A stretch of 64,000 bases of DNA from an uncultured Lachnospiraceae bacterium. Its GTDB lineage: Bacteria > Bacillota > Clostridia > TANB77 > CAG-508. Location of the stretch: the NCBI GenBank assembly GCA_964497325.1, contig CAZCCM010000001.1, positions 10,103 to 74,102 on the forward strand. The letters are read 5' to 3'. Position numbers and translations under genes: made by a program. Every line of letters starts with the position of its first letter. The stretch's first letter is position 1. The notes under the pieces were generated by a model. It did not search any database. It saw nothing but the letters and a program-made list of their open reading frames with translations, and was not told the origin of the DNA. Shown piece after piece: positions 9,852 through 56,128 of this stretch.

Positions 9852-9900
9852 TTTCACTCCTACTTTTTTTATATGTTTTATTAAAAGCCCTACATATTAT

Positions 9901-9935: not shown

Positions 9936-9936
9936 T

Positions 9937-12870: not shown

Positions 12871-12968
12871 TTCTTACCTTTATCTCTATTATTCTTACTT
12901 TTATCTTCATTTTTTTGTAACTTATTATATCTTATATCTTTTTTTATTAAGATTAAACTATAAATACA

Positions 12969-18357: not shown

Positions 18358-18397
18358 ATTTAAAATTTTTTCTTTATATAATATAAAGTCTTCCTTT

Positions 18398-37311: not shown

Positions 37312-37314
37312 CTT

Positions 37315-38979
37315 TTAATCCTCACTTTTTATAGTTTTTTTTACTATTTCTTCTATAAAATCTGGTAAAAAATTATCCTTATTATATAATAAGTAAAGAT
37401 TCTTTTTTTCATCAATTTTATCTAAAGAGCTTTCTTCTCTTTCTTCTAATTTGCTTTTTTTTCTATTTACTTCTGATAAATATATTTCTTTATATTTTTC
37501 TAAAAGAATAGGTAATTTTTTTTCTTTAGTCTTTTCATTAATTTTTAATTTTTCCATTAATTTATTTAAAGAAAATTTTGTTTCAACCTTTGTTCCTACA
37601 CATTCAAATGGTTTTGCATCTCTTTTCCCAATAAGTTTATACATATCTTCAAGCAATCCTTCATTTTCAAAAATATCTGAACCAAATATTTCTATTAATT
37701 TATCTTTATATAAAAATGGTGCAAGTATAATGTAAGCAAATAAACATTTTGAACAATTACAACACCATTCCCATTTTTCTCCTTTACTTCCTACATTACA
37801 AGAATTAAATGTATGAAAATATTTTTCATATCTTGCAAAAATTTTAGCAATCCCTACTTCTGTTAAAGGTCTTAAAATACTAAAATATTCTATATCAATA
37901 TTTAGAAACTTTAAATATTCTCTAAAGTCTTTTTCAAATTCAATAGCCTTAGAATATTGGTGATTAATATCTAAATCTACGACTGTAGGTTCATTGGCTG
38001 AAGATTCATTTGATAAAGGAATATATTTTTTATTTAATATATATGCAGCCAAGATTGATAAAAATGCTACTGTTGCAGAAAATGGAACATGTCCATTAAA
38101 AAATCCTTGCTCATTTCTTAATTTAAGTTTAGGATCAAAATTTCTTTCTACTTTAACTACTTCACTATTTTTATAGCCTGCAACTTCTGCTGTTTTTATT
38201 CTAGCTCCTTTATAATCTATTGCAAATAATGTATTTATTCCTTTAAATTCTTTTAGCAATTCTAAAGTAACAACTGAGTCTTTCCCCCCACCTATAGGAA
38301 TTAAAAATCCTTCTTTTTCTATATCTAAATATTTGTTTTCTCCTTTATTATTATTTTCATTATAATATTCATCTAATTTAGTATTTGCAATAATTTTAAC
38401 AAATTGTTCTTCGTCTATACTTAATAGTTTGTTTAAGTATCTATATTCTCCTAATCCATTAAATATTAACTTTGACCACCATTCTTTTTGAAATTCTTCC
38501 ATTTCTTCCGAAACTATAAAATTTTGTACTGGAAAAACTTTATAATATGAAATTCCTTCTACCATTCCTATATTAAAAATAATATTTTCAAATTCTTTAG
38601 AAGAAACTTTTTCTTTAATATATTCTTCAATTTCTTTTATTTTTAAATCTTTTAAATGTTTGTTTTTCTTTAATTCATCTAAACTAATATTGATTTTAAC
38701 TTCATGTTCAAAAGAAAAATCTTCTTTTGAAAAAGGAAAATTTGTTGGATTTTCAGAAATAACTTTTTTACCTATTAAGTTTTGTTTAAAATTAACAAGA
38801 TCTAACATAGAAGAATCAAAAAAATAATAATACTTTAATATAAATAATAATGAATGAGATGAATCAATATTCTTTTCATCTTCATTTATTTGAACAATAA
38901 CCTCAGAATTTTCATAATGAAAAGACACCCTATCTCTCTCTTTTAATATCTCTTTTTGTAATTCAGTCATATTTATCAC
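37315..38979 (-). CDS. PP-loop (N-type ATP pyrophosphatase) superfamily protein with a long N-terminal extension and a Cys-rich C-terminal motif. Possibly an RNA thiolation/modification enzyme.
   Basis: 554 aa. The PP-loop 'IPIGGGKDSVVTLELL' sits at about residue 230. The C-terminus carries 'FNSCNVGSKGEKWEWCCNCSKC'. It is translationally coupled to rarA upstream and murD downstream. Confidence 0.45.
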   Translation of the reverse strand: MINMTELQKEILKERDRVSFHYENSEVIVQINEDEKNIDSSHSLLFILKYYYFFDSSMLDLVNFKQNLIGKKVISENPTNFPFSKEDFSFEHEVKINISLDELKKNKHLKDLKIKEIEEYIKEKVSSKEFENIIFNIGMVEGISYYKVFPVQNFIVSEEMEEFQKEWWSKLIFNGLGEYRYLNKLLSIDEEQFVKIIANTKLDEYYNENNNKGENKYLDIEKEGFLIPIGGGKDSVVTLELLKEFKGINTLFAIDYKGARIKTAEVAGYKNSEVVKVERNFDPKLKLRNEQGFFNGHVPFSATVAFLSILAAYILNKKYIPLSNESSANEPTVVDLDINHQYSKAIEFEKDFREYLKFLNIDIEYFSILRPLTEVGIAKIFARYEKYFHTFNSCNVGSKGEKWEWCCNCSKCLFAYIILAPFLYKDKLIEIFGSDIFENEGLLEDMYKLIGKRDAKPFECVGTKVETKFSLNKLMEKLKINEKTKEKKLPILLEKYKEIYLSEVNRKKSKLEEREESSLDKIDEKKNLYLLYNKDNFLPDFIEEIVKKTIKSED

Positions 38980-40212: not shown

Positions 40213-40992
40213 TTATTCCTTTATTTCTTCTATTTTTACGCTTTTAATTATAACATTATTTAATGGCTTATCATTATCATCAGTTTTTGTTTTTGCAACT
40301 TTATCTATAATATCCATTCCTTCGTATACATATCCAAACACAGTATGTGCCTTATATAAATGTGGGGTACCACCCTTTTCCATATACAATCTTTGTATTG
40401 ATTCTGGTAAGTCTTCAACTTGTTCAGAACTTGCTGTTTCAGGTCCTGCTTGTACAATAAAAAATTGACTAGATAATGAATTTTCAACACCACTAACAGA
40501 TGCCATACATAATGTTCCTTTGTATGGGAAATATCCATCTTTATATTCTGGACCAAAGTCTGAACCAAAGAAAGATTCTCCACCTGTACCTGTACCTGTA
40601 GGATCTCCACCTTGAATCATAAAGTCTTCAATTACTCTATGGAATGTTAGACCATCATAATATCCTTCTTTTGCAAGTCCTTTAAAATTTTCAACTGCTT
40701 TTGGTGCTACATCTTCGTAGAATTTTATTTTTATTGTTCCATAATCTTTTATTTCCATAACTGCAATTTCTGAGCCAAGAAGAGGTTCTTCAAACATTTC
40801 CATTTCAGCCATCCTAAGTTCAGATTCTATGTCTTCTGAATTTTCTCCTTCTGTAGTTTCCTTTTCTTCAGCAATCTTTGTTGCTGCTTGATCTTTTGTA
40901 ATAAATAAAAAGATCATTACTCCTAATAATGCTATTATTATAACTATTAGCATTCCTATAATCATTTTGTTTTTATTCATTTTATTCTCCAT
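40213..40992 (-). CDS. Membrane-anchored cyclophilin-type peptidyl-prolyl cis-trans isomerase
   Basis: An N-terminal TM, then 'FHRVIEDFMIQGGDPTGTGTGGESFFG' and 'SQFFIV', which are canonical cyclophilin motifs. Confidence 0.8.
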   Translation of the reverse strand: MENKMNKNKMIIGMLIVIIIALLGVMIFLFITKDQAATKIAEEKETTEGENSEDIESELRMAEMEMFEEPLLGSEIAVMEIKDYGTIKIKFYEDVAPKAVENFKGLAKEGYYDGLTFHRVIEDFMIQGGDPTGTGTGGESFFGSDFGPEYKDGYFPYKGTLCMASVSGVENSLSSQFFIVQAGPETASSEQVEDLPESIQRLYMEKGGTPHLYKAHTVFGYVYEGMDIIDKVAKTKTDDNDKPLNNVIIKSVKIEEIKE

Positions 40993-41935
40993 ATTTTATT
41001 ATTTCTATTTTTTGTATTTTTAATTCTTTACTTGTTTTTGTAATATCTTTTACTAAATCCATTCCTTCCACTACCTGTGCAAAAGTTGGATATTTTATAT
41101 AATCCAATAAATTTGCATTTGGATTTTCATAATCTTTTTTTGAACTACAAGGAAAATTTAATATATAATTAAATCCATTTCCGTATTTAGTAAATAAGTT
41201 TTGTAATTGAGTTGGAACATTTAAATCTGTATAATTAACAACTCTATTTGAATCCATATTCATTACAAAAAAGTTAACTCCATAGTCTTTGTTTCTTAAA
41301 AGTATTCCATTTGCACAAACTGCTCCATTATACGGAAGCACTTTATTTGATTTTACATCAAGAGTTTCCCAAGATTCTATTTCATTAAGTATTTTTTCTT
41401 CTTCCTCTTTATTACTTGGTTCTCCTATTGGTTCCCAATTTACTCTTTCATCAGCAATAATTGTTTTAATAGATTCATCCTTTTCACTATAAAATTTTGC
41501 ACCATTATAAAATCCATCTTTTGCTAACCTTTTAAATTGTCTTACTATTTCAGGAGCATCTTCTTCAAAAAATTTTATTTTAATAGTTTTATCTGTTCCT
41601 TGAAGATGTATTATTGCAATTTCTTCACCTACTTTAGGATTTGAAATTTGTAATTGATATAATTCTTCATAGTCATAATTGTCATATTTTTTAGCATATT
41701 CTCTCATTTGTTTTTGAGAATTTAATGATCCTTGAGAAGATTCTATTTTATTAGTTTTAGCAAATTGTGGAACTCCTGGTAAGTTTATATCTCCTTTAAA
41801 GATAAACACTACAAGTATTATTAATATTACAAATAATAATATTAATCCTGAAGCTATCCAAATCCATCTCTTTACTAATTGTTTTTGAGTTAAATCTAAT
41901 CCTTGAAATAGACCTTTTTTCTTTTGTTTTTTCAT
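40982..41935 (-). CDS. Membrane-anchored cyclophilin-like paralog (divergent, possibly non-catalytic)
   Basis: An N-terminal TM. 'KIKFFEEDAPEIVRQFKRLAKDGFYNGAKFY' parallels the start of the neighbouring cyclophilin, but the HRV/FMIQGGD core is not recognisable. Confidence 0.45.
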   Translation of the reverse strand: MKKQKKKGLFQGLDLTQKQLVKRWIWIASGLILLFVILIILVVFIFKGDINLPGVPQFAKTNKIESSQGSLNSQKQMREYAKKYDNYDYEELYQLQISNPKVGEEIAIIHLQGTDKTIKIKFFEEDAPEIVRQFKRLAKDGFYNGAKFYSEKDESIKTIIADERVNWEPIGEPSNKEEEEKILNEIESWETLDVKSNKVLPYNGAVCANGILLRNKDYGVNFFVMNMDSNRVVNYTDLNVPTQLQNLFTKYGNGFNYILNFPCSSKKDYENPNANLLDYIKYPTFAQVVEGMDLVKDITKTSKELKIQKIEIIKYGE

Positions 41936-41943
41936 AATCCCTC

Positions 41944-42378
41944 CTAATCAGGTAAATGAATTGTTGTTTTTCTGCCACCAAAAAACCTTGAAATTTTTTT
42001 AAAAAACTTTTTAAAAAAACCATCTCTTTTAATAACAGCTAGAGCTTGCATCTCTTCATTTATTTGTTCAACATGTTTTATTTGATCTTGCTTAAATTGT
42101 TTTTCACCAACATTATATCTCTTTTGAAAATCTTTTAAAGTTTTTTTATCAACCCATGCTGTTTTTAATATTATTGATAATATTATAACAGTTTCATACA
42201 TTAAATCTTGTTCATACAAAGGTTTAGAATAATCAATGCGAAAATGATGAGTGTCATCTTTACATTCACTCATAAATTGTAAAAAATTTTGTGGCACCTT
42301 TTTTATTAATTTTGGATCTGTATGCTTAAGAATAATTTCAACTTCTTTTAAACTTTTAAACAAATCTTTTTGACTCAT
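41944..42378 (-). CDS. Hypothetical cytoplasmic protein
   Basis: 144 aa ORF between ruvA and the cyclophilin genes. No recognised motif. Confidence 0.35.
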   Translation of the reverse strand: MSQKDLFKSLKEVEIILKHTDPKLIKKVPQNFLQFMSECKDDTHHFRIDYSKPLYEQDLMYETVIILSIILKTAWVDKKTLKDFQKRYNVGEKQFKQDQIKHVEQINEEMQALAVIKRDGFFKKFFKKISRFFGGRKTTIHLPD

Positions 42379-42967: not shown

Positions 42968-43152
42968 ATTTCACCTTGAAATTATTATATATAATTTTAT
43001 TGATATTTTCAAGTAAAACTTTTTTTATATAAACTATAAATTACAATAATAAATATACTTCTTTTACTTAAGAAAAAAGACATAGTTTTCTATGTCTTTT
43101 TATCTTTTCCCAAATGTGTTTTTTTAATTGTGTTTGTATTTATTATTGTTTG

Positions 43153-46100
43153 TTATTTATTATTTTCGTCTTCATTTGGTAAAACTCTATTTTTTTGTAT
43201 AGCATTCATTAACACTTTTATTAACACTGTAACTCCCGCTATTCCTATCATTATAATTAGCATTGTATTTAAAGTTAATCTTAATGTTTTTTGAGACTTA
43301 CTTAAACCTGTAGGAGGTGTTATAGTTACTAACATTGCTAAACCTGTATCTGGTTCTAAGTTTTCAGCATCAAATGTTTCTGATAATCTAGTATTAATAT
43401 TTCCTGGAGTTGAAGATGTAGATCTTCTTCCATTATCTGTTGAATATTCTACTATTTCAGCTATATTATCAAAACTTAGGTCTTCATCTGCTTGTTGTGA
43501 TGATAATCTCTTAGTTGCTATCTTTGAACTTATTTGATATGGTGAAATCTTTTCTTTGTCAGTTCCTCGTGCTATTGCTGTAGCGTATTCATAATACGGT
43601 ACTAATCCTTCATTCATCTTCTCATTCATGTATATATTTGAGCCTCCAGTTTTAAAGTATGACTTTCCGTCTGGATCTGATATTAAGCTTGTTTCTAGTT
43701 TATAAGTTTTATTGCCTGAATCATCATATACAGCGATCAAAGAATCTAGTTCTTCAATATTTTTAATTTGTGCCCATCCTTCGTCAGTTTGTAAATCATC
43801 TTTAACTGCACTGTTGTCTACATAATCTAATACTTTATTTACATATGTTTTAGAAACTGTTTCCTCATATAGTTTATAATCTCCTATCTTAGAAGTTTCT
43901 GTATAATCTCCTGTGTAATATCCTTTTCCAAAGAATCTACCAAATCCATATTTATCTGGATCTATTTCATGATTTAACTTTGAATATTTTTCTCCTGATC
44001 CTGCTATTGTACCAACGTATTTAGAAACTTTATCATCTTTTCTAGCATCTTCTATTGATTGTGTTTTAAAGTTTTCCTGTATTGTTGCTCTATCTACTTC
44101 TCCAAGATTGTATGCTCTAACCTCATATTCCATTTCAATATTCATATCTGATAATAATTGTTTATCAAAATTTAAATGTATATATCCATTTGATTTTCTT
44201 ATTGCAGGGTCTTCTATATTAATATTTTCCCATCCTCTTGCATTTGTATATATACCACTTTCTGATTTATTTTCTTCCCAATATGGTTTTTTAGTTGCAT
44301 ATATAATTGTATTTAATGGATTTACTTTATCTCCATTTACAGAATCTGCTTTAATTTCTGTCTTAACTTTTAAAATATATTCACCTATATTGTATCCATT
44401 TTGAGTTTTTCTTTTAGTATCATATTTTTTATCTTCTTTTTCTGCTTTTAATACATTTTTATCTTCATTTGGTATTACTATGTTTTCAGCATCATAAGTT
44501 GTTTCATATTCAGCATCAACTAACTTTGTACCTTCTGAACTTTTTAATGTTAATTTTGTAATTTGTTTATCTAAAACTATTTTTGTTTTTGGTCTTTCTT
44601 CTAAAGCAATATTTACATTATTGTATGTGTGAGCTTCATTTGGTACTTCTACATCTTTCTTTCCATCATTACTTTTAGTAATTCCTGGTAATGCAAAGAC
44701 ATCTGCAAATTTATTATATAATATATTTTCTTTAGATACAGATCCGTAGTAATTTATTCCAAAGTTAATTACTGGTGTTTCTGCCGTCATATTAGCAGTT
44801 GATTCTATAACTTTTCTTGTTTCATCATCAAACTTATCATGTCCTATATTTAAAATTTCTAATCCACCGCCAATTTTTGCATTTATATTTTTTGAATTTT
44901 GATATAGCTTGTATCTGCTGTATTCACTATCTCTTCCATAAGAGTAATTTTCTTTTGGAGTTGATGGAAGCCATGTTTCATTTAAAGTCTCTTTATTTCC
45001 ACCATCATATATTGAAACTTTAAAATCTTGACCATTATATACTTGTGGTGATTTATCTCTATTTTCTATATCTACTATTTTAGTTGTTTCGATTGTATCT
45101 TTATTAAGTATTCCTATAGATTCTGTAATATCATTTCCTGATATTATATATGGTAATTGTACAACAAAGTTTCCTGCTGGAATATTTTTAAACTTGTATT
45201 TTCCATCTTCACCCGTTCTCATATATGATTGAAATCCAATTAAGTCTCTTAAACTACTAATTTTAATTCCTGTACCTTCAATCTTATTTTCCCATACATA
45301 TGGAATATCTACATAATTAGTTTCATCTTTCAATACTTTATTATCAAAACCTTGCTCCATTTTATATTCAGTACTTAAATCAACCGCTCTAATAGAAACC
45401 CTTTCTTCTAAAGCAACTATCTTATTTGGTATTGGTTTTTCTTCATCTTTATTATATATACCATCACCCATATTTACTCTAGCAATCTGATTGTTTCTTT
45501 TTTCTTCCCAAACCATACCTGAAACTTCTCTTGGTGCTTCTGTTTCTAATTTAATAGTTATCATTGGAGCAACTGAAGAATCATCTTCTAAGTATGAAAA
45601 GTCTTGTTTTATATTTCCATCAAATCCAGCTTTTGTAAAGTTTAATCGGCCTAAATTAATATTTGCTGGTGCAGAATCTCTGTCTACTTTTCCTGTTACT
45701 TTTCCTGTGTATTTATTATATGTTGCATATCCTGCAATTTCTGTTAAGTGATGTTTATTTCCTAATCTAATAGAATTTTCTACTTTATCACCATTTTCTG
45801 CAAAAAGCTTGCCTTTATTAACTTTAAAGTTAGTTACTACTTCTAACCTTCTAGCTGAAGGTAATATAATATCCATATCACCATACTTATCATCTAAAGT
45901 AGTTAACATTCCAATTCCTTTATTTGTTTCTTTTTTTGTCCATATAAATGGTTCAGATTTAGTTAGCCCTGGAATTTTTTCATATTCAGTTTCTGCTTTA
46001 ACATCATCAAAGTTTCTTTTAATATTTGTATCTAAAGTTACAATTCTATATTCTGGTGTTCCTATAACCACATTACTTCCCGATATTGCAGCTTTACCTG

Positions 46101-49100
46101 TACCATTTTTATCTTCAATTTCTTCTTTGTCTATTTCCTTTTCTATCTTTTCTAATACTGGAGTTAATGTCTCGTCATAATACATATTTAAGCCTGAAAC
46201 AATAGCAGAATCAACTTGAGAATAGTTTGTTATTGCTTGTTTATATTGTAAATATACATCTAATTCTCTTCCTTCTTGATCTTTATTTTTTTCTGCTAAT
46301 CTTTTTGCCTCAGTATCTAATGCTTCTTTTATATCAGGGTCTTTATACATTGCTGTTCTATAAATATAATCTGCTTTATATATCTCTAATTGATATTGTA
46401 AGTCACCATAGTTTTCTGAATATTTACTAATCAAGTGACTGTATCCATCATTCTCATCTTTCTTTAAATCGTACTTATTTGCAAAAGTGTTTATTAAAGC
46501 TTTTTTATTTATAAATTGTATTGATAACATTAAATCACTTTCTAATTCTAAATCAACTTTTCTTCTTTTGAATAATCCTAAGTTGATGTTTTCCATATGG
46601 GTATTTGATTCATGAAATACTACCACAGATTTATTATCTAATGCATCTGTTACAGTAACTCCTTCTTTATTTTTATATTCTTCTGCTTTTTCTTTAGTCA
46701 TTATTATTACTAAATCAAAATTACCATTTGTTTCAGAGGTTGCATTTTTATTTGACATAGCTTGTTCCATGTCTATTTCATATACATCTCCTAATGGATA
46801 TAGTATACCTGTGTTTAATGTAGAAGCTCTCGTATTTCTTTTAGTTTCAAGAGTTGAAACCGTTCTATTTTTATCATTAACTTTCCCTTCATAATTTAAT
46901 TCATAATCATTTTCAGGTGCTTTTTCAACTCCAATAGCTTTTCCTACAGTTTTTCTATTTTCATCCATTTCTGATGAACCATTTATTTCACCCATATTCA
47001 TATTAAATGTATCTCTTGCTTTAGTATTTTCAACAGCCATAGAGTCATTTACCGCTTTTCCTGCATTTTCAAGATTATAATTATCTGGATTATATGAAAG
47101 ACTTGCTAAAGCTGGTACTGGTACATACTCTATACCATCATATTCAAATTCTACTTCAAACTTTACAGAATGTGTTTTTGAACCATATCCTTTTTTTATT
47201 TCTTTTCTAGTAAATCCTAAGTCTCTTAAATAATATTTACCCCATTCTCCTTTATCATTTGTTTTAATTTTTTCTGTTATTGGAGCATTATACTTACCTT
47301 TTTCAAATACTCTTGCTGCTTGTTTTTCTACTATACTTTGATCACTATTTTTTATAATTAATCTATTTACCCTAACTGTTATATCTTCAAACATTCTATC
47401 TTTTTTATCTTCGTTTCCTGTGTTTAATATAAAGTTATATGAAGATAATTTGTCTCCATAAGGATTATCTTCCCATACTTTACCACCTATTGGTAGTACA
47501 AAGGCTGGTGCATTTTTATAAACGTCAGGGTTATCAGGAATTTTCTTGTTTTCTATTAATTTTGCTGTTGTATCAACATATTTTAATCTACCTTTAACTT
47601 TCATTTGTGGCTGTGTTTTTTCTAACGATAACATTGCTTTAGGTACAACTAAAACATCTGGAGTTTTAAATAATACATGTCTGTATCCTTCATTAAGCGT
47701 TGGAATTGATATATCAGAATTTACTTTTGCAGATGTTGGCATATTTTTTAATGCTAAATCAGGATCTATCTTTGCTTTATTTGTTTTTCCAATTTCAACT
47801 GTATTTGTAACTTCTGCAATTTTTGTTTCTTGAGGTATACTTTCATTCCTTTTATTCTTAAATAGGCCTAATATTTTATCTGTAAAATTAGGATTCTGTT
47901 TTTTTTCTACTTTTCCAAGATCTTTAAGAGTTATCTTTTTAGTTTGACCTCCGCGAGTTCTAAAAATAGCTACTAAAACGTTTCTATGAACACCATGACC
48001 TGTTGAATAACTACCTCCATTCATTGAAGTTTCAATATTTGTTGAAAACATAAACACATTATTCTTTATCTGAAGAAATGTTACTTCTAAAGGAGGTTCT
48101 TTTGCAGGGATATCTATATAATCAGTTTGTCCTCCCTTTGTTATAAAATACATTCTGAAAGAAGTATATTCCTTAGGTATTGAATATACTTGATTATAAT
48201 AATAAGTATAATTACCAGAGCTACAATTTATATTTGACATAAAACTATATGTGTCATTATTCTCAGAATATTTTATAACATTAAATGATTCCGAAGGAAA
48301 CATATCTTGATAACTTTTATCTAAATACATAAGATCTTTATATGGTTTTGAAAAAGACCTAAAATTTATTTCCTTTGATCCACCATTTATTGAAGTTCCT
48401 TCAGCAGTTATTCCATCATAACTATAAAGAAAACCTCTAGCAGGAGTGAAGCTACTTGATTTTTCATTCCATTTTATTGTTTTATAAAGAGTATTTCCCT
48501 CTCTTGTCCAACCATCTAGTATATGCATTTCAGAAGGCTTATATGGTGAAAAATCTAATGTTAATGTCCCAACATCATCACCTGGTGTAATATCAAATTT
48601 AACCTTCGGTTTCTGTACATCCAAATAAGCATTAGAGTACTTTTCAAACTTTTCAATTTCAATATCTGCTTCAAAATCTATATATTCTCCAATACCAGCA
48701 TAATAATTAGCACTTGCCTCATAATCTACAGCTCTAAATGAAGCTGTAAGTTCTGCTATTCTTATTAAGTTTTCATCAAATGGTATTTCTATATAAAACT
48801 CTTGATTTGGCTCTGGAACACCATATTTTAAACTTGTTACTTCCCCCTTTGCAATCTGTTCTGCAGTTAAATTAGTTCCTTTGGCTTGTAATGGTACAAA
48901 GTATGACCATTTTAGTATTTCTTTAATAGTAGTCTTAGATTTATCATTATATTCTCCAGTAATTTTCATATTAGTCATACCTGCAAAATATTTTTCTGAG
49001 TTACCATTTTTTACTGTACTTAGTAGATAATCTAATTTGTATGGACCAACTAGCCAAGATCCTTCTTTATATTTTTCTGATTTAGAATTAAATATAATGT

Positions 49101-50421
49101 CCCTCTTAGTCTCAACAAACTTTGCTGAATTTTCAAACGCATTATTATGATTTGCTTTCCATTTTACAAAACTATCGTAATATGCTTCAAAAGCTTCAGC
49201 TTCGGATTTAAGTTTCTTAGCTCCATCAGTTTGAAATATATGTCCTGTGTATCCTTCATCATCAGGATATTGATCACCTTCCAATGACCATAATACTTCT
49301 TGTGCATCACCAGGATCTCCTACTACACTTCCATCTTTACTAGTCATTTTTGGTTTAGTAGCTAAAGCATATGCCGCTTGTGGAGATAAAGGTTTATTTT
49401 CTGGTGAAACCATTTCGTAATAGTTATTTGTTCTTATTCTATTTTCTTTATCAGCAATACTAGAACTACTATGGTCACCATCATAATCATTATCAGGATT
49501 ATAAGCGTCTCCAAATTCTGCTCTAATTGCATTATCAAGACTTTTTAAAACCATTTTATTTATATTTTCACTTGTTATTTCTTCAAAAAAATTTTCTATA
49601 GTTCCTCTATCTCCAAGATCTTGATTATTTCCTTCAACTTCCACAATCATATGTTTAAATTCATGGGCTACTTCTTTACTTTTCCATATATATGGAAAAG
49701 TAGGATTAGTTCCTGTATATACATAGTCAAAATTGTCTTTCATTTCTTGTTTTGTTGGACCTTTTTCTTCATATCTAACACCATAATCATCTAAATATTG
49801 CATTACATCATAAGATCCTGGAGCATCACTTCTTGAAGATAAATTGCTTAGTTTCCTATTTCTAGACTTAACAAAAGTTTCTAATCTTGCTACAAGTTCA
49901 GAATGTTTAGGTAATTTTAATCTCGTTGCTATTTCTCCTTCTCCTAAACCTTGTAAAAGTAATATGTGCTCATTTGCACAATAAATGTCTATGTTAGAAT
50001 AAAAATCTACGAATGTAAAAGGATTAAGTTTACCTGTAGAAGAAAACGGGTTATTTTCACTTTTAGGAATCTTATTATTTTCTTGATAATTATTATCAAA
50101 AGATTGCAACTTAGAACCTTCTGCTGTCCAAAATTCATCTCCCTCTTCTATAGAAGGTTCAACATTATATCCTTTTTTTGTTAAATATTTTTCATTTTCT
50201 ATATACCCTTTTGTTTGTGTATAAAACCCTTCAGACTTATCAAGTTCAATTGTAATATCATCTTTTTCACCTTTAAAAATTTTATCATTAATCTTAGCTG
50301 GTAATTTACCAGTTCCTGCATATACTATATTGTTTATTATAGGAGATATTAATATGATTCCTATAATTAATAGTGTAAAGATAATTATTTTTTTACTATT
50401 TGATATTATATTCTTTTTCAT
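43153..50421 (-). CDS. Giant surface protein (about 2422 aa). It has a signal peptide, an HExxH zinc-metallopeptidase motif near the N-terminus, Cna-B/SpaA-like beta-sandwich domains and a C-terminal single-TM anchor.
   Basis: The likely start is the ATG at 50421, 1 nt after the upstream gene's stop, with an AGGAGA RBS 9 nt upstream. 'KEVAHEFKHMIVE' lies at about 49660-49690. 'DGKYKFKNIPAGNFVVQLPY' is a Cna-B-like signature. The C-terminus is 'LTLNTMLIIMIGIAGVTVLIKVLMNAIQKNRVL'. Confidence 0.6.
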   Translation of the reverse strand: MKKNIISNSKKIIIFTLLIIGIILISPIINNIVYAGTGKLPAKINDKIFKGEKDDITIELDKSEGFYTQTKGYIENEKYLTKKGYNVEPSIEEGDEFWTAEGSKLQSFDNNYQENNKIPKSENNPFSSTGKLNPFTFVDFYSNIDIYCANEHILLLQGLGEGEIATRLKLPKHSELVARLETFVKSRNRKLSNLSSRSDAPGSYDVMQYLDDYGVRYEEKGPTKQEMKDNFDYVYTGTNPTFPYIWKSKEVAHEFKHMIVEVEGNNQDLGDRGTIENFFEEITSENINKMVLKSLDNAIRAEFGDAYNPDNDYDGDHSSSSIADKENRIRTNNYYEMVSPENKPLSPQAAYALATKPKMTSKDGSVVGDPGDAQEVLWSLEGDQYPDDEGYTGHIFQTDGAKKLKSEAEAFEAYYDSFVKWKANHNNAFENSAKFVETKRDIIFNSKSEKYKEGSWLVGPYKLDYLLSTVKNGNSEKYFAGMTNMKITGEYNDKSKTTIKEILKWSYFVPLQAKGTNLTAEQIAKGEVTSLKYGVPEPNQEFYIEIPFDENLIRIAELTASFRAVDYEASANYYAGIGEYIDFEADIEIEKFEKYSNAYLDVQKPKVKFDITPGDDVGTLTLDFSPYKPSEMHILDGWTREGNTLYKTIKWNEKSSSFTPARGFLYSYDGITAEGTSINGGSKEINFRSFSKPYKDLMYLDKSYQDMFPSESFNVIKYSENNDTYSFMSNINCSSGNYTYYYNQVYSIPKEYTSFRMYFITKGGQTDYIDIPAKEPPLEVTFLQIKNNVFMFSTNIETSMNGGSYSTGHGVHRNVLVAIFRTRGGQTKKITLKDLGKVEKKQNPNFTDKILGLFKNKRNESIPQETKIAEVTNTVEIGKTNKAKIDPDLALKNMPTSAKVNSDISIPTLNEGYRHVLFKTPDVLVVPKAMLSLEKTQPQMKVKGRLKYVDTTAKLIENKKIPDNPDVYKNAPAFVLPIGGKVWEDNPYGDKLSSYNFILNTGNEDKKDRMFEDITVRVNRLIIKNSDQSIVEKQAARVFEKGKYNAPITEKIKTNDKGEWGKYYLRDLGFTRKEIKKGYGSKTHSVKFEVEFEYDGIEYVPVPALASLSYNPDNYNLENAGKAVNDSMAVENTKARDTFNMNMGEINGSSEMDENRKTVGKAIGVEKAPENDYELNYEGKVNDKNRTVSTLETKRNTRASTLNTGILYPLGDVYEIDMEQAMSNKNATSETNGNFDLVIIMTKEKAEEYKNKEGVTVTDALDNKSVVVFHESNTHMENINLGLFKRRKVDLELESDLMLSIQFINKKALINTFANKYDLKKDENDGYSHLISKYSENYGDLQYQLEIYKADYIYRTAMYKDPDIKEALDTEAKRLAEKNKDQEGRELDVYLQYKQAITNYSQVDSAIVSGLNMYYDETLTPVLEKIEKEIDKEEIEDKNGTGKAAISGSNVVIGTPEYRIVTLDTNIKRNFDDVKAETEYEKIPGLTKSEPFIWTKKETNKGIGMLTTLDDKYGDMDIILPSARRLEVVTNFKVNKGKLFAENGDKVENSIRLGNKHHLTEIAGYATYNKYTGKVTGKVDRDSAPANINLGRLNFTKAGFDGNIKQDFSYLEDDSSVAPMITIKLETEAPREVSGMVWEEKRNNQIARVNMGDGIYNKDEEKPIPNKIVALEERVSIRAVDLSTEYKMEQGFDNKVLKDETNYVDIPYVWENKIEGTGIKISSLRDLIGFQSYMRTGEDGKYKFKNIPAGNFVVQLPYIISGNDITESIGILNKDTIETTKIVDIENRDKSPQVYNGQDFKVSIYDGGNKETLNETWLPSTPKENYSYGRDSEYSRYKLYQNSKNINAKIGGGLEILNIGHDKFDDETRKVIESTANMTAETPVINFGINYYGSVSKENILYNKFADVFALPGITKSNDGKKDVEVPNEAHTYNNVNIALEERPKTKIVLDKQITKLTLKSSEGTKLVDAEYETTYDAENIVIPNEDKNVLKAEKEDKKYDTKRKTQNGYNIGEYILKVKTEIKADSVNGDKVNPLNTIIYATKKPYWEENKSESGIYTNARGWENINIEDPAIRKSNGYIHLNFDKQLLSDMNIEMEYEVRAYNLGEVDRATIQENFKTQSIEDARKDDKVSKYVGTIAGSGEKYSKLNHEIDPDKYGFGRFFGKGYYTGDYTETSKIGDYKLYEETVSKTYVNKVLDYVDNSAVKDDLQTDEGWAQIKNIEELDSLIAVYDDSGNKTYKLETSLISDPDGKSYFKTGGSNIYMNEKMNEGLVPYYEYATAIARGTDKEKISPYQISSKIATKRLSSQQADEDLSFDNIAEIVEYSTDNGRRSTSSTPGNINTRLSETFDAENLEPDTGLAMLVTITPPTGLSKSQKTLRLTLNTMLIIMIGIAGVTVLIKVLMNAIQKNRVLPNEDENNK

Positions 50422-50422
50422 A

Positions 50423-53400
50423 CTATTTAATCTCCTTTCCATTTATTTTTCTTAATACGAGAAAGATCATTGCACCAATTGAGCTTATAATAGTTAGTAT
50501 TAATAATCCATAAGCTATTTTCTTTCCAGTATTTAAACCTAATATTAATTCTAAACTTACAAAATCATCTTCTTCTATATTTTTATTATTAGGAGTAGAA
50601 TCTCTATCCGGTAAACCTAAACTATTCTTAAATTCAGCAATTTCAAAATTTACTTTAGAAAGTCCTAAATTTTCTTTATTAAAGTCTTTAGCTAATGTTA
50701 ATTCTATGTTTTGTGCATTTCCTGGTTCAATATTATTAGAAGAAAGTGCTGTTGTAAATATATTTCTTTCATCATCAATTTGCCATGTTTTATTAAGCTC
50801 TGGTACGAATTTCATGCCTTCTGGAATCTGTGCATTAAGTCTTAATACATTTCCCTCAACTTCTCCCTCATTTAATACTCTTAACTTATATTTAACTAAT
50901 ACTTGTGTTTTGTTTAATTCACTTCCATTTAGTTCAATTTTTACATTTTTTCTATCATTAAAGTTATACTGTTTTGGTTCTTTATTTGATGTTTCTATTA
51001 TTACTTCTGATATTTCTCCATCTAAACTTAAATCAAAGTTTGATTTTTCTACAAGCCCTAAATCTACATTTTTAACACTTGCAAAATTAACTTGTATTCC
51101 ATCAGTAACAGCTACACTTTTATTTGTACGATTATCTACATTAACTTTAATACCTTTTGAGTTTTCATCATTACTGCTTTTTGCATTATATATAGTTGGA
51201 ACATACTTTTCATCATTATATTTAAATACTGCTGAATAATTTCCATTAACTATATTATCAAATTGATATTTTCCATTTTCATCTGAAACTGTTCTTGCAA
51301 CTACTTTTTGTGTTTGATTATCCACTAATTCTACTATTACTTTTCCTAAAGTTTTACTTTCTGAATTATATGTCCCATTCTTTTCACTATCTATCCAAGT
51401 TGTTCCTAAAATTGAATGAGTAACTGTAGCCGATGAGTCAGTTCCTAATCCATATTCTTTTTTATCTTCAGGAGATATATTTATTTCTCCCTTGTCATAC
51501 ATTTGTTTAATAACACTTTGTACAGCTCCCTTTTTTATGTCTAAATTTACTGTCTTTAAAACACCTTCCATTCCTGCTTTAAATGTTGCTATTTTTGAAC
51601 TAGATTCCCCAATTCCATTTATTTGTGCTTGTACAAATATTTCTAATTTTTTATTTTGTTCTATATAGAATGGATAAACATACTTTCTTTGACCTACTCC
51701 GTCATCTGCAATTGTTAGTACTGAATTTTGTTTTCCATCACTTGTTTTCTTATATATAGAATTAACTTTTATTCCTTCTGGTGCTTCAAATATGAAATTT
51801 GCACCAGGTATAAAATAAGAAGGCTTAATAGAATATTTTATAAATATATCTTGATTTTCTTGTACTGATGATAATTTTTTATTAGACTCATTATAATTAT
51901 CATGATTATATATTTCTATTCCTGATTCTATTGTTTTTTCTGCAATATAATTTGTAATAGAATTTGATTCAGCTGTTATAGCTTTACCATCTTTTTTAGA
52001 TGTTGTAGCAGCATTAAATTTTAAATCAACTTTTTTAACATATGATGCTGGTAAAGGATTTTTTAATTTTACCGAAATATCAAACTCTACAGTTGATCCT
52101 CCTCCTAATTCATCATCTAATAATTGTATTTTTAAAATATTTGTTACTTTATTATATTCTGTTACTTTATATAAAATATTTTTTGTTTCAACATATTCTA
52201 AAGTATTTGGTAATTGTAAAGTTAAATTAACCTTATTAAAACTTTCAGAATATGATGCTTCATTTGTTTTTTTATCATATATAAAACCTGTATTATTTAT
52301 AACTTTAACATTATATTTTTTAATTGTGTCAGGATATATATTTATTGTACTAGGTTCAATCTCTGCTTTATAATCTGACATTCTTACTTCAAGTTTTTGA
52401 CTTTCTATAGTACTTCCTAAAGCTTTTTTAGATTTAACTATTTCAAAATTCTCAGCAGCTACATTTACAGCTAATTCTATCTTTTCATCTTTTTTTACTT
52501 CTTTTGCAGTAAAAACTAAATACTTTTTAATTGACCCTCCTACTTTAATATCCCCTAAACTTATATATGCACCTTTTTTATTATCAGATAATCTTATAGT
52601 AGTTCCTGTTGCATCATCTCTTATTCCTTTAAACTCTAAACTTTCTGGTATGTTAATATATGTTTCAACTTTTTTTGCATCTGTTTTCTTTGCATCATTT
52701 GCTACTTCTAAAGAGTATATTATTTCTTCGTTTTCTGAAATAATCTCTTTGTTTGCTTTAATATCTATATTTAATTGAACACCCTCTCCTGTAGATAAAG
52801 CAACTGTGCTTGACATTTGAGCATATCTAACATTACCCTTTTTAGTATTAACTCCATATTCTGCAAAACTATATGTTTTTGCTATTTGGTTATGTTCTAA
52901 ATTTGCTGGAATTTCCATCGCATAATTAAATTTTAATAAAGTTCCTTTTGGAAGTTTATTATTTAAAACAATTAGAAAAGACTTTGCATTTTTTATATTT
53001 TCATTTTCACTCCATGCATTATTTACATTTTTTAAATCACTTGTTGCATTTGGATTTGTTGAATAATATATTTTGTAATTACCTTTTTCAGATTCAATTT
53101 TTTTAGCTAGTACCATATCAAAGCTTGAACCTATCTCTTCATTTGTAAAAACATTTTTGTTTAATTTATTAGGTATTCTTCCTATTATTACAGGACTAGT
53201 TACTTCTGAATCACTATTATTTAATAAATACATATGTGCATCAATAGTTCTTTTTCCTGATAACACATCTAATTTTCCTTCCTTATATCCTTGATTTATA
53301 GATATTATAGAATCATTATTTTTATTATATTTTTCAAATTCATTTATTAAAACTAATCCTTGTGGAGCATTATATTTTAAATTTCCTTTTATTATTGCAT

Positions 53401-55501
53401 TTCCATATTTTTCAAAATTAGCAAAAGTAGAACTCATATTCCAAGCTTCTTTTTTTGCATAATTTGTAGCTAAAACATTTGAATATTTAACTTGATATTC
53501 AACATTTTGGCTTGTTGCCCATTGATCTAATGTTATATCAGTATTAAGAACAATATTAGTACCATTTGTTAAATGTCCTGTACTTATACCATCTTGTTTT
53601 CCAGATAAAACTATTTGTACTATATGTTGAGCTCCTTGTTTTATAACTTTAGAACTTGCAATTTTTAAACCTTTTCCATGTATTAAGCTTGCATTTTTTA
53701 AATTAATTGTTTTTATTCCTTTTGGTAAAATCATTTCAAAAACTGTTTGCCCATAAATATCTGACGATAATTTATCATTATTAAGAGCTATAATAAACTC
53801 TATATTTTCATTTGTCTTAATAGTAGATAGTTCAGTCTTATTTGTTCTTACCAAAACATTTGAACTTGCATCTGTTAATTTAATACTATGTTTTATTTCT
53901 TTCAATAAAGTGTCTGCATTATTGTATACAACATATGCTTCTTTGTTTGTATTTAAAGTTTCTATATTTTTTAAAGTTTCTATATTATAAGAAGATTTCA
54001 CTAAACTTCTTATACTTTCTATAAATACTTCTCCTTCTTTTTTTGGTTTTGAAGTTTCTATTGTAATATTTGAAATTGCATTTTTAAATTCATATACATA
54101 TTTATTATTTATTGCTAAACTTTTATTGTCTAATCTTTCTAGTAATTTACTTCCAGAATATATATTAATATATCCTTCTCCAAAAACTTCATCAAACTCT
54201 TTTTTGTTTATTTCTATCTTTTTATATATAAAGTTTTTTTCTATATTTCCATTATTATATTGAGGTTCATTTTCTACAATCTTTATTGAATCTGTTATTT
54301 CAACATTTGATACATCTAATTTTATTTTAGATTTTACAATATTTTCTTTTACTTCAGTTGCAAAAGAGTTTACATAAAGTATACCTTTAGATATGTTAGA
54401 AATATCAGTTGTTTCAGATATATCAATCAATTTACCTGTTTCTTTATCTAAAATTGTGTGCATACTTAATTCTTTTTGATTTTCACTTAATTTTGAATCT
54501 CCTGTCAAAACATATTGTTTAACTAAAAACTTTGAATCACCTTCATATTTTTCTAAATCTTTTTCTATCTCATAAAAAGAAGTAATTAAAATTTCTAAAT
54601 TTCCATCACCTGCAGAATATGTTTGATTTTCATTTTTAGCATTTTCAACTTCAATAATTAACTTATTATTTTCTTTATCCCAAGAATAAAAATCTTTTTC
54701 TAAAAGAATATTTTCTTCTTTATTAAATAAGCTTGCTTTTTGTATAGAAACATTTATAGCTTTAGGAAGTTTTTCTCCTAATTTTAATAAGCTTGTTTCT
54801 AAAGCTATTTTTTGAGTTGGTAAAATAATTTCTTTGTTTTTATTCTTTATAGTAATTAAATTTTGTAAAACTACTTCTTTTCCATTTGTTGTCTTTTGCT
54901 TAATGTATTTTTGAATTTGGTTAGAAATCTCAATGTCTTTATTATCAATCCAATTTAAATTTAAATTTGTTCTTTTATAAACATCATATTTTCTACCTTG
55001 TTCATTTACATATTCTCCAGTTAATTCAATCTCACTTTTATTAAGTAAGGTACTTGCATCTACATCATCTACACCAATATATTTAATTGGTATTTCTATA
55101 AATGTTTCCGATGTACCTTCTATTTGATTTAACTTAACCAAATAACTTTCAACTGATTGAATTAAATCAGATTCTTTCTCTGGATTAACAAATTCATATG
55201 TTAAGTTCTCTGGATTACGAATTTCAATTTGTCCTCCATTAAAATACCCTTTTTCTTTTACATTTAAGAAAAGCCTAACTTTTAAATCCTGATCATTTAC
55301 ATCTGCTTTGATAGAATCTAAAGTTTCCTCTCCTCTTTGAAAAGATAAATTTGCATCTACAAATCTAGTAGACGTTTTAACGTTTGTTTGATTCGCTGCT
55401 ACTTCTTCTGCAACAGCAAAAGCTGTAGTTCCAAAAATAGGCATTAATAATGCTATTAATAAAACTATTTCTATTAATTTTGATAATATTGTCTTTTGCA
55501 T
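50423..55501 (-). CDS. Large surface protein (about 1692 aa) with a signal peptide, repeated Ig/Cna-B-like domains and a C-terminal TM anchor with a basic tail
   Basis: The likely start is the ATG at 55501, 5 nt after GGAGG. 'ENGKYQFDNIVNGNYSAVFKYNDEKYVPT' is a Cna-B-like signature. The C-terminus is 'LGLNTGKKIAYGLLILTIISSIGAMIFLVLRKINGKEIK'. Confidence 0.6.
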   Translation of the reverse strand: MQKTILSKLIEIVLLIALLMPIFGTTAFAVAEEVAANQTNVKTSTRFVDANLSFQRGEETLDSIKADVNDQDLKVRLFLNVKEKGYFNGGQIEIRNPENLTYEFVNPEKESDLIQSVESYLVKLNQIEGTSETFIEIPIKYIGVDDVDASTLLNKSEIELTGEYVNEQGRKYDVYKRTNLNLNWIDNKDIEISNQIQKYIKQKTTNGKEVVLQNLITIKNKNKEIILPTQKIALETSLLKLGEKLPKAINVSIQKASLFNKEENILLEKDFYSWDKENNKLIIEVENAKNENQTYSAGDGNLEILITSFYEIEKDLEKYEGDSKFLVKQYVLTGDSKLSENQKELSMHTILDKETGKLIDISETTDISNISKGILYVNSFATEVKENIVKSKIKLDVSNVEITDSIKIVENEPQYNNGNIEKNFIYKKIEINKKEFDEVFGEGYINIYSGSKLLERLDNKSLAINNKYVYEFKNAISNITIETSKPKKEGEVFIESIRSLVKSSYNIETLKNIETLNTNKEAYVVYNNADTLLKEIKHSIKLTDASSNVLVRTNKTELSTIKTNENIEFIIALNNDKLSSDIYGQTVFEMILPKGIKTINLKNASLIHGKGLKIASSKVIKQGAQHIVQIVLSGKQDGISTGHLTNGTNIVLNTDITLDQWATSQNVEYQVKYSNVLATNYAKKEAWNMSSTFANFEKYGNAIIKGNLKYNAPQGLVLINEFEKYNKNNDSIISINQGYKEGKLDVLSGKRTIDAHMYLLNNSDSEVTSPVIIGRIPNKLNKNVFTNEEIGSSFDMVLAKKIESEKGNYKIYYSTNPNATSDLKNVNNAWSENENIKNAKSFLIVLNNKLPKGTLLKFNYAMEIPANLEHNQIAKTYSFAEYGVNTKKGNVRYAQMSSTVALSTGEGVQLNIDIKANKEIISENEEIIYSLEVANDAKKTDAKKVETYINIPESLEFKGIRDDATGTTIRLSDNKKGAYISLGDIKVGGSIKKYLVFTAKEVKKDEKIELAVNVAAENFEIVKSKKALGSTIESQKLEVRMSDYKAEIEPSTINIYPDTIKKYNVKVINNTGFIYDKKTNEASYSESFNKVNLTLQLPNTLEYVETKNILYKVTEYNKVTNILKIQLLDDELGGGSTVEFDISVKLKNPLPASYVKKVDLKFNAATTSKKDGKAITAESNSITNYIAEKTIESGIEIYNHDNYNESNKKLSSVQENQDIFIKYSIKPSYFIPGANFIFEAPEGIKVNSIYKKTSDGKQNSVLTIADDGVGQRKYVYPFYIEQNKKLEIFVQAQINGIGESSSKIATFKAGMEGVLKTVNLDIKKGAVQSVIKQMYDKGEINISPEDKKEYGLGTDSSATVTHSILGTTWIDSEKNGTYNSESKTLGKVIVELVDNQTQKVVARTVSDENGKYQFDNIVNGNYSAVFKYNDEKYVPTIYNAKSSNDENSKGIKVNVDNRTNKSVAVTDGIQVNFASVKNVDLGLVEKSNFDLSLDGEISEVIIETSNKEPKQYNFNDRKNVKIELNGSELNKTQVLVKYKLRVLNEGEVEGNVLRLNAQIPEGMKFVPELNKTWQIDDERNIFTTALSSNNIEPGNAQNIELTLAKDFNKENLGLSKVNFEIAEFKNSLGLPDRDSTPNNKNIEEDDFVSLELILGLNTGKKIAYGLLILTIISSIGAMIFLVLRKINGKEIK

Positions 55502-55917
55502 TTGAACCTCCATTCAATTTTCTTTAATGTAATATTAATTTTTGCATAACCAATTATTTATATCAAACCGCTTTTTACTATATATATATTAAAAACATTT
55601 TTTTATAATTTTAAAACCATTCTTTTCTTTAATAAATATGCTTTACAAGGCTTGCAGGTAATTTATGTAACATTTTAACAACATTTTTTTTAATATTTTA
55701 AAAATTTCAGCTTAAATATACAATTTTATTTTTTTATTTTTTTTAATAGTTTTTATTTTTTTTGTTTTTTTTATAATTTTATTTTGTTTGATATTTTTCA
55801 GCTTTATATTTTTATATTTTTATTTTTTTATTTTTTTTAAATATTTTTTTATAAAAAAATAAAGAACAAGTTTTATTTTTAAATTATTCTAAATACCCTT
55901 AAATCAATAATTTAAAC

Positions 55918-55977
55918 TTTTTCTTTTGTTCTTTTTTATTTTTAAAATTTTTCTTTTGTTTCTTTTTTATTTAAATA
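55918..55977. repeat. 30-bp direct repeat x2 in the long AT-rich region upstream of the surface-protein operon
   Basis: 'tttttcttttgttcttttttatttttaaaa' and 'tttttcttttgtttcttttttatttaaata' sit inside a 615-bp non-coding stretch with phased T-tracts. Confidence 0.6.
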
Positions 55978-56128
55978 TAAGTTTCTTTTTTAGTTTTCCA
56001 TCTTTAAATATCTAAAAAAAACATTAAATTATCTTTTTTTCATATAATTGTTTTTCTGTTTTCTCTTTTTTAACAAAATTATTTTTTATATAATTATATT
56101 ATAGCATAAAAGTTTAATTCACGCTACT

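Follow-up and report, generated by a model that had tools for sequence, protein, structure and literature searches.

How two giant proteins could be made together and held at the surface of a gut bacterium is the question raised by two adjacent genes, here called A and B, in a stretch of 64,000 nucleotides (the window) on contig CAZCCM010000001.1 of an uncultured Lachnospiraceae bacterium. The window is very AT-rich (~25% GC), and almost all of its genes, including A and B, lie on the minus strand (Table 1). On balance, we favor the reading that A and B are translationally coupled giant surface proteins of the fibrillar-adhesin kind, which would be exported by the Sec pathway and would probably cooperate in adhesion in uncultured low-GC gut Clostridia. 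It is very likely that both are anchored at the surface through their C-termini. B is quite likely to be a sortase substrate, with cleavage predicted from its conserved motif, whereas for A the same processing is possible though uncertain.

A conserved and coupled gene pair

A word-indexed search of 5.8 billion proteins returned 56 relatives of A, nearly all of them 1600–1750 aa long with SdrD_B and PF01345 domains, and 8 relatives of B. A locus scan of one genome per GTDB species, with an alignment of 13 sequences as the query, yielded 55 loci, all from metagenome-assembled genomes (MAGs) of uncultured gut Clostridia of rabbit, chicken, sheep, deer, mouse and human, some of which are named Candidatus Scatovivens. 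When open reading frames (ORFs) were called on these loci, the A-type gene was almost always directly followed by a second giant of 1300–3050 aa; at least 17 of these downstream giants are homologues of B (phmmer E below 1e-30, for most 1e-41 to 1e-55), and some loci contain A-B-A-B arrays. In the MAGs closest to the window the order pbp2, A, B, ... ruvA recurs, with the same 1-nt junction between A and B.

The initial annotation had described a two-gene operon in which B starts 1 nt after the stop of A, fed by a ribosome-binding site (RBS) in the last codons of A, and the sequence of the minus strand bears this out, as it does the sizes of the proteins and both of the C-terminal strings quoted. 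The longest ORF of A spans 55513..50423 and its RBS favors the ATG at 55501; for B, the longest ORF is 50442..43153 and the ATG at 50421 was chosen as the start, leaving a single T between the two genes (TAG-T-ATG). In the window's clade the A tail ...NGKEIK* is nearly invariant although the proteins are only 55–65% identical, which fits dual coding for the RBS of B. Among 39 junctions between A and the next giant in the 55 loci, several of which come from tandem arrays or involve truncated or atypical giants, the spacing varies between −13 and +86 nt. Exactly one nucleotide between stop and ATG is found in 15 of the 39, with GGAGG encoded in the tail of A (...KRKGGV*, DNA AAAGGAGGTGTTTAA-T-ATG). 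Because the A proteins of these 15 loci are mutually only ~25% identical, the recurrence of the 1-nt junction with an RBS in the tail is not a product of chance; coupled translation would thus be a conserved property of the A–B pair. Such coupling would provide near-fixed A:B ratios, suggesting that the two proteins act together at the surface, possibly as an adhesive fibre or coat.

Considering the 615-bp spacer before A and the terminator-like hairpin after B, the two genes look like one transcription unit. The hairpin is located 52 nt past the B stop and is followed by a ruvA promoter-like site at 43012–42984. Promoter-like hexamers upstream of A (55701–55672 and 55566–55538) are consensus matches only, at a frequency no higher than in shuffled sequence. 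The spacer also contains a 30-bp tandem direct repeat at 55911–55971 (two copies, 84% identical, minus-strand reading AAATAAAAAAGAACAAAAGAAAAAGTTTAAA), which could be a regulatory site or merely low-complexity AT-rich DNA. A further feature of this region is seen in 18 of the loci (including L011, L013, L016, L017, L019, L020, L022 and L045), where a conserved ORF of ~151 aa lies divergent just upstream of A. It has a Ser/Asn-rich centre and a C-terminal ...LKPYLKPSRKEKVDQYIQL..., gave no match in Pfam or NCBIfam and does not occur in the window's clade; a role as regulator or accessory factor of the cassette is conceivable.

Domain architecture of protein A

Both proteins begin with a Sec-type signal peptide, recognized by eye from a basic n-region, a hydrophobic core and an AxA-like site (...TTAFA/VAEE in A, with AFA/VA; ...NIVYA/GTG in B, with VYA/GT). 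In A it is followed by ~11 beta-sandwich domains, an SdrD_B domain, a CLIPPER (DUF11)-like domain and finally a TG motif, a hydrophobic stretch and a basic tail. Each of the two proteins would thereby form an extended rod whose beta-sandwich domains are of the CnaA/CLIPPER-like and SdrD-B/CnaB-like types and whose C-terminus fixes it to the cell surface; A would be an all-beta stalk of conserved length.

The Cna-B-like domains named in the initial annotation can be upheld in part. Pfam recognizes the SdrD_B domain of A, and profile–profile comparison detects such domains in B, but the SdrD_B of A is the single Pfam domain across the 4114 residues of the two proteins, and Pfam finds none in B. 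Sequence searches of the PDB with A and B gave matches only to the B domains of SdrD and UafA, and NCBIfam gave none for either protein (full-length B at E up to 0.1).

The last domain of A adopts a CnaA-like Ig fold. PF01345 did not match window A or B at E up to 0.1; precomputed matches to it exist for most A-family homologues. This family, formerly DUF11 and now CLIPPER, is CnaA-like with an intramolecular isopeptide bond and is typical of the stalks of fibrillar adhesins (PMC12617251). The isopeptide signature Lys-Asp-Asn occupies the corresponding alignment columns in 31 of 42 A-family sequences. Window A carries G1495-A1557-V1617 instead, and all nine members of its clade have G/S-A-L/V at these positions. 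Losing all three residues together is what is expected if Lys, Asp and Asn work as one unit, and the clade looks like a natural 'triple knockout' of the isopeptide bond, supporting a joint function of the three. Of the isopeptide residues that the initial annotation had raised, alignment thus finds the triad replaced in window A and a conserved one in B (below).

The strongest conservation in the divergent N-terminal half of A is a loop at residues 479–494 (~54020–54067) with the pattern I.I.TSKP..EG.h.I, where h is hydrophobic. In this TSKPxxEG loop, placed as such in a confident AlphaFold model, K485 is kept in at least 90% of sequences and P486 and G490 are invariant; it might provide an acceptor lysine or an interaction site.

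Head and modules of protein B

B is composed of a signal peptide, a clade-specific head of ~940 aa, two expanded SdrD_B-like plus CLIPPER-like modules and a TPPTG signal. Alignment of the A family with the B family by hhalign placed A 1361–1653 onto B 975–1621 (probability 96.2%) and A 1278–1690 onto B 1518–2409 (probability 99.4%, E 1.8e-21), which implies that B is a ~940-aa head followed by two insertion-expanded copies of the terminal module of A. The shared module is SdrD_B-like and CLIPPER-like and ends in ...D.DS.P.N...EDD...A.hydrophobic strand; its SdrD_B-like part is seen in B only by hhalign and by the common signature G-x-V-W-E-D...G-K-Y-x-F. A and B would accordingly have this one homologous C-terminal module in common and differ in everything upstream of it. 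In module 2 of B, K1952 and N2319 are present in 17/17 B-family sequences and D2199 in 16/17 (Glu in one); as an isopeptide triad, Lys1952, Asp2199 and Asn2319 would staple a domain of ~370 residues.

The head is less uniform. Residues 36–600 are conserved in the close clade only, and residues 600–940 are hypervariable, with per-window identities of 6–44% among proteins that are 50–60% identical overall. This variable and presumably distal head would make B the likely ligand-binding partner. An exhaustive search with the head profile against 1.84 billion representatives gave 7 matches, three of which are weak and shorter proteins (P0068–P0070) that share with it the pattern C...Q..LW...GPFK.DY...PNEEFYIEI, and a further word-indexed search with the B-head alignment gave one match.

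Several features of the head recall thioester domains, which are marked by a Cys motif [YFL]C-hydrophobic-hydrophilic (PMC4450167) and a helix motif TQxx(hydrophobic)W (PMC6194298); their Gln motif is a weak strand motif, (hydrophobic)Q(hydrophilic)(hydrophobic)(hydrophobic). B contains two cysteines, one of them conserved: Cys148 is the only cysteine common to the seven close B homologues, in several of which it is the sole cysteine, and the +2 residue of its IYCAN motif is F in several homologues. The AQEVLW segment has the counterparts VQRALW in P0068 and IQLAWW in P0069. A candidate glutamine, Gln540 (PNQEFYIEIP), is invariant in the close clade and replaced by Glu in the same two far homologues. 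Pfam models, those for thioester domains (TED, TQXA) included, matched neither the B head nor the far homologues at E up to 10, a PDB profile search with the head gave no match, and an AlphaFold2 model of B 36–620 built from 7 sequences reached a mean pLDDT of 39.3. Judged from these sequence motifs, the head is a candidate thioester domain, but a doubtful one.

C-terminal signals: sortase substrates or membrane anchors

When the C-termini of all giant proteins in the loci were listed, they fell into two clean classes. A-type tails consist of ...EDD..(S)A(D).hydrophobic strand-[KRSNQ]TG, 1–6 residues, ~20 hydrophobic residues and a basic tail, and their motif, [IVL]x[KRSN]TG, is proline-less; at ~25% overall identity, T1658 is kept in 40/42 sequences and G1659 in 41/42. 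B-type tails have a proline-containing motif followed by 1–20 residues, a hydrophobic stretch and ...IKKKVL. The motif is TPPTG in 21 cases, LPPFG in 7, LPPTG and TPNTG in 3 each, MPPTG, VPPTG and IPPTG in 2 each and LPQTG in 1, so that window B carries the commonest form of its family. PPTG is conserved in 16–17 of 17 B-family proteins despite otherwise variable flanks.

Both window proteins thus end with a motif, a hydrophobic stretch and a positively charged tail (K...QKNRV... in B), the architecture of sortase signals that the initial annotation had noticed. The shared 'LNT(G/M)' motif that it proposed has to be given up: the conserved element of B is TPPTG, and 'LNTM' is the mere start of the hydrophobic stretch. 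The alternatives it offered, a variant sorting signal or a plain anchor, are the right ones, and they now apply to TPPTG in B and to a proline-less class in A. We propose that the tail of B, in which TPPTG is followed by a spacer, a hydrophobic stretch and charged residues, represents a variant of the LPXTG cell-wall sorting signal particular to this lineage; by the most likely route, a sortase would cut B between T and G and link it covalently to peptidoglycan. In A, LNTG stands directly before the membrane-spanning stretch and could be a second class of sortase signal, or it could stay uncleaved and leave A anchored in the membrane.

The closest described signals are clostridial. SrtB of Clostridioides difficile cuts PPKTG and SPKTG at the T–G bond (PMC4155245), and these substrates resemble B in having Pro-x-Thr-Gly with a first residue other than Leu (PMC4155245, PMC5118464); B differs from them by Thr, rather than Ser or Pro, in the first position, by a longer spacer and by proteins that are 3–10 times larger. 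The Cna-type protein CbpA of the same species carries the proline-less NVQTG, of the form x-V/I-x-T-G, comparable to the A-type [IV][KR]TG and to LNTG of the window. In contrast to PPKTG and SPKTG, NVQTG was not cleaved by C. difficile SrtB in vitro (PMC4155245; also PMC5118464), and this class has never been shown to be cleaved.

The main competing explanation is that A and B are plain type I membrane proteins, never processed by a sortase, in which TG and PPTG are structural elements such as a strand end or a turn at the membrane interface. A number of observations weigh against sorting signals, and those concerning the curated models, the sortase genes, LPPFG and NVQTG equally favor plain anchors. 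At E up to 10, the two window tails match no curated model of a sorting signal, NCBI TIGR01167 (LPXTG_anchor, cut-off 15.9 bits) included; the A-type tail of L006 reaches 12.8 bits on TIGR01167 and 16.5 on Rumino_NPXTG (cut-off 23.5). Both window motifs, TPPTG and GLNTG, deviate from LPXTG at positions known to matter, and A lacks the proline altogether, with the uncleaved NVQTG as its nearest analogue. TPPTG lies 50 residues from the C-terminus, and its 15-residue spacer, which includes K, K and R, is longer than in classical signals. Seven B-type giants (L020, L021, L028, L032, L036, L045 and L058) carry LPPFG (within ILPPFG), which has Phe in place of the Thr of the scissile site. Since sortases normally cleave after Thr, LPPFG implies either a cognate enzyme with altered specificity or recognition without classical cleavage.

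Nor does the locus supply an enzyme. Searches with phmmer, using two sortase queries, and with the TLxTC motif found no sortase gene in the 64-kb window, and a sortase lies within 10 kb of the cassette in only 1 of the 55 distinct related loci. This single enzyme in ~1.1 Mb of related loci, encoded two genes downstream of the cassette in L006 (L006/L007), is generic and nearest to class C. Its frequency is what would be expected if genomes that each have one or two sortases were sampled at random; linkage is thus no better than chance and speaks neither for nor against processing. No other ORF in the window ends in TG, a hydrophobic stretch and a basic tail, and no paper in the literature joins 'TPPTG' and 'sortase'. 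At the other end of the proteins, no binding domain or ligand was identified for A or B, which weighs against the adhesin part of the reading. For A in particular, the TG lies 1–2 residues past the last strand and the hydrophobic stretch begins 2 residues later, as a membrane anchor would have it.

Against plain anchors stands first the conservation of PPTG between variable flanks. Orthologues with textbook motifs pass TIGR01167, namely the LPPTG B-type tail of L035 (18.1 bits) and the LPQTG giant of L055 (21.8 bits). The internal B copy of the shared domain ends without TG (…ITIKLETE…), which indicates that the motif is not needed for the fold. Moreover, a short hydrophobic stretch of ~17 residues with a basic tail is the classical layout of a sorting signal. 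Taken together, plain anchors for both proteins appear rather unlikely.

A possible covalent two-protein fibre

A second possibility is a pilus-like covalent fibre of two subunits, in which a sortase would join Thr2371 of B to a lysine of A, with B as the tip and A as a stalk anchored by its own TG. It draws on the obligate A-then-B order and the coupled translation, both kept across deep divergence, and on the strongly conserved, exposed TSKPxxEG loop with K485. The model for such an arrangement is the FCT pilus of Streptococcus pyogenes, in which a class B pilus sortase takes as substrates both the tip adhesin Cpa, with thioester domains and VPPTG, and the shaft pilin, with EVPTG (PMC3019223). 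The cassette resembles the Cpa/FctA genes in several respects: two adjacent genes with two different, family-specific classes of non-LPXTG motif, xPPTG on the partner with the variable head, a candidate thioester signature in that partner, and motifs directly after the last beta-strand, as in pilins. Unlike the FCT pilus, the A/B cassette has no sortase or SipA gene, and a pilus-type sortase is missing next to A and B in the window and in 54 of the 55 loci. The pilin motif YPKN is likewise missing (neither YPK nor [FYW]PKN occurs in A or B), the subunits of 1692 and 2422 aa are 3–5 times larger than known pilins (~340 and 750 aa in the FCT pilus), and we found no evidence for polymerization or for any contact between A and B. 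We consider this fibre improbable.

More elaborate, and very improbable in our view, is an obligate two-protein covalent fibre inserted into the growing side wall. Here a divergent thioester head (Cys148, with Gln540 or another Gln) would bind ligands on the host or on food particles covalently, and a sortase would join TPPTG of B to a conserved lysine of A, e.g. K485 of the TSKPxxEG loop. The xxTG of A would fix the base of the fibre, either as a sortase signal of a class not described before or as a membrane tether, and the linkage to mreCD-pbp2-minC would reflect an insertion coordinated with elongasome activity.

Genomic setting

The reading of A and B as coupled, C-terminally anchored surface proteins is complemented by their position on the chromosome. 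In the window the pair is flanked by radC, mreC, mreD and pbp2 on one side and by ruvA, a 144-aa ORF, two cyclophilin-type isomerases, mgsA/rarA, murL, a Mur ligase and nrdD on the other. Clustering of the neighbouring genes across the loci recovers a recurrent order: M23 peptidase, mecA, radC, (mreB), mreC, mreD, pbp2, minC, the opposite-strand 151-aa ORF, A, B, spoIIE and a WG-repeat protein. The position between mreC-mreD-pbp2 and either ruvA or spoIIE is kept in more than 20 genomes. This recurrent order implies that the cassette is an old, vertically inherited core feature, neither an island nor a plasmid gene. A plasmid or mobile origin was considered and rejected: megablast of the 12-kb region and tblastn of the A C-terminus against plasmids retrieved only staphylococcal SdrD-B domains. 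Relative to its closest relatives, the window shows 55–65% identity for A and 49–59% for B, compared with 68–82% for MreC, PBP2 and RuvA and ~61% for MurL. At 55–59% identity, against 68–82% for their neighbours, the evolution of A and B is only moderately accelerated, which indicates purifying selection on a core envelope component.

The window's clade departs from the common order at 58760–60271, where radC is directly followed by mreC, without mreB in between, and minC is missing after pbp2 (also in L001 and L008); many other genomes (e.g. L005, L020 and L039) have radC-mreB-mreC-mreD-pbp2-minC. Downstream of the cassette this clade has ruvA where others have spoIIE. These differences hint at a reduced, possibly non-sporulating lineage.

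The initial annotation had also considered A and B as partners of a type IV secretion system (T4SS), and this suggestion did not hold. As mating-pair adhesins, A and B would act like PrgB or the class II thioester adhesin of pLS20 for the T4SS-like genes at ~8.3–24.8 kb of the same window. The Ig-like domains of PrgB, the LPXTG-type aggregation substance of the Enterococcus faecalis pCF10 T4SS with an Ig-like stalk (PDB 8beg), are among the top Foldseek matches, and a thioester-domain adhesin is reported to be required for conjugation of Bacillus subtilis (PMC8092201). However, PrgB is encoded in a plasmid conjugation operon, whereas A and B are chromosomal core genes whose synteny with mreCD-pbp2 extends over loci that have no T4SS genes. 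The similarity to PrgB is that of a generic Ig array (TM 0.17–0.25), with no polymer-adhesin domain detected in A or B, and no plasmid relatives were found in the searches above. The housekeeping genes that the initial annotation had itself seen between the two loci are indeed there, over ~18 kb (mscL, mfd, nrdD, murL, mgsA, peptidyl-prolyl isomerases, ruvA). This reading is essentially excluded.

Equally excluded in essence is A as a bacterial alpha-2-macroglobulin-like envelope guard with an adjacent penicillin-binding protein, as in yfhM-pbpC, for although A has a similar size (~1650–1700 aa) and adjoins pbp2 in many genomes, it has no cysteine and hence no CxEQ thioester, residues 31–1200 are all-beta without a helical thioester domain, the matches are single beta-sandwich domains with a global TM of ~0.1, and its C-terminus is an adhesin-type SdrD_B/CLIPPER module.

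Table 1. Positions of the A/B cassette features within the window.
Feature	Position	Strand	Description
Gene A	50423..55501	minus	ATG 55501 to TAG 50425-50423; 1692 aa, predicted to be exported, cysteine-free
RBS of gene A, GGAGG	55507..55511	minus	5-nt spacer to ATG 55501; read directly
Gene B	43153..50421	minus	2422 aa, predicted to be exported; no Pfam or NCBIfam match
RBS of gene B, AAGGAG	50432..50437	minus	within A codons ...GKE..., 10 nt before ATG 50421
Upstream intergenic region	55514..56128	minus	615 bp, very AT-rich, between pbp2 and gene A
Terminator-like palindromic hairpin	43074..43101	minus	12-bp stem, flanked by A and T runs, usable on either strand
Signal peptide of A	55412..55501	minus	residues 1-30, MQKTILSKLIEIVLLIALLMPIFGTTAFA/VAEE; pattern read from the sequence, no predictor
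Array of A	51902..55411	minus	residues 31-1200, all-beta; Ig-like, CnaA-like and cohesin-like sandwiches, no Pfam match
SdrD B-like (CnaB-type) domain of A	51137..51403	minus	residues 1367-1455; PF17210, 3.8e-12, 46.8 bits (cut-off 29.7)
Last domain of A, CLIPPER (DUF11)-like	50537..51037	minus	residues 1489-1655
C-terminal signal of A	50426..50542	minus	LGLNTG (residues 1654-1659), KK, 22-residue hydrophobic stretch, RKINGKEIK
Head of B	47602..50316	minus	residues 36 to ~940
Cys148 codon of B (motif DIYCAN)	49978..49980	minus	candidate thioester cysteine
AQEVLW of B	49288..49305	minus	residues 373-378; Q and W invariant; resembles the TQxx(hydrophobic)W helix motif
Module 1 of B	45547..47499	minus	residues ~975-1625; SdrD_B-like start GGKVWEDNPYGD, CLIPPER-like part with large insertions, end ...DRDSAPANIN...EDDSSVAPMITIKLE
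Module 2 of B	43306..45546	minus	residues 1626-2372; SdrD_B-like (VSGMVWEEKRN...), CLIPPER-like part with insertions, TPPTG end
C-terminal signal of B	43156..43320	minus	TPPTG (2368-2372), 15-residue spacer (LSKSQKTLRLTLNT.), ~17 hydrophobic residues, mixed basic/acidic tail

Other genes in the window

The T4SS-like cluster occupies 8279–24836 on the minus strand. Three T4SS_pilin (PF18895) matches, at 19696–20370, 24411–24836 and, weakly, 9937–12870, are all at or below the gathering score, one with an E of only 0.0039. The cluster also encodes a VirB4-like TraG P-loop ATPase (20922–22874), a 1064-aa M23 peptidase with a KENK/N-rich repeat tail (15163–18357) and large ORFs without a family match (12969–15182, 18398–19696 and 22890–24074); no relaxase or coupling protein was recognized in it. 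A giant ORF that runs off the window (2–4024, minus strand, at least 1341 aa), with a weak glucosaminidase match and a C-terminal NlpC/P60 domain, encodes a large cell-wall hydrolase, which may be a PrgK/TcpG-type enzyme of this cluster.

A MurL-like UDP-MurNAc-L-Ala-L-Glu epimerase (35938–38979, minus strand) adjoins the Mur ligase gene. It scores 226.8 bits against the Xanthomonadales equivalog (cut-off 700), and its orthologue in L001 has MurL_N and MurL_epimerase_C by Pfam, which suggests that these Clostridia reach the D-Glu of peptidoglycan by using L-Glu first and epimerizing it afterwards. Downstream of ruvA (40213–42378, minus strand) are the conserved 144-aa ORF, which has no family match, and the two cyclophilin-type peptidyl-prolyl isomerases. 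The isomerase of 317 aa evolves much faster (36–43% identity to orthologues) than the one of 259 aa (65–70%); the two may be folding helpers for exported proteins.

Significance

A and B belong to a familiar kind of bacterial adhesin and do not represent a new type of system. Like fibrillar adhesins with CnaA/CLIPPER and CnaB/SdrD-B stalks (MSCRAMM-like, 'TIE'-type; PMC12617251, PMC4450167), they combine a signal peptide with a long all-beta Ig-like stalk, one SdrD_B domain by Pfam, a Lys-Asp-Asn signature in B and most relatives of A, and a motif followed by a hydrophobic stretch and a basic tail; by analogy with these proteins, A and B may serve as adhesins. They differ from them in that the stalk is not built of tandem repeats and that A holds its length of ~1600–1750 aa across sequences only ~25% identical. 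In addition, A and B are always paired with coupled translation, carry TPPTG or proline-less xxTG instead of LPXTG, fail the curated anchor model and occupy a core chromosomal site by mreCD-pbp2 rather than an island. The cassette is an undescribed family, and its arrangement is unusual in the obligate pairing, in the two non-canonical classes of tail and in the core position on the chromosome.

The finding extends a known theme into unexplored taxa and does not overturn current understanding. The xPPTG/LPPFG and proline-less xxTG motifs provide a concrete, testable set of non-canonical signals, and xxTG bears on the status of NVQTG in C. difficile CbpA. The head of B, a dark domain in which one cysteine alone is conserved, could represent a covalent adhesin of a new thioester type. 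The cassette is carried by abundant, uncultured low-GC Clostridia that live in the gut of rabbits, poultry, ruminants and humans and whose surface biology is almost wholly unexplored. The coupled pair fills ~12 kb of their small genome and has stayed at one chromosomal site through divergence to ~25% identity; a cassette retained in this way is likely to be a principal factor in the surface that these cells offer to the gut.

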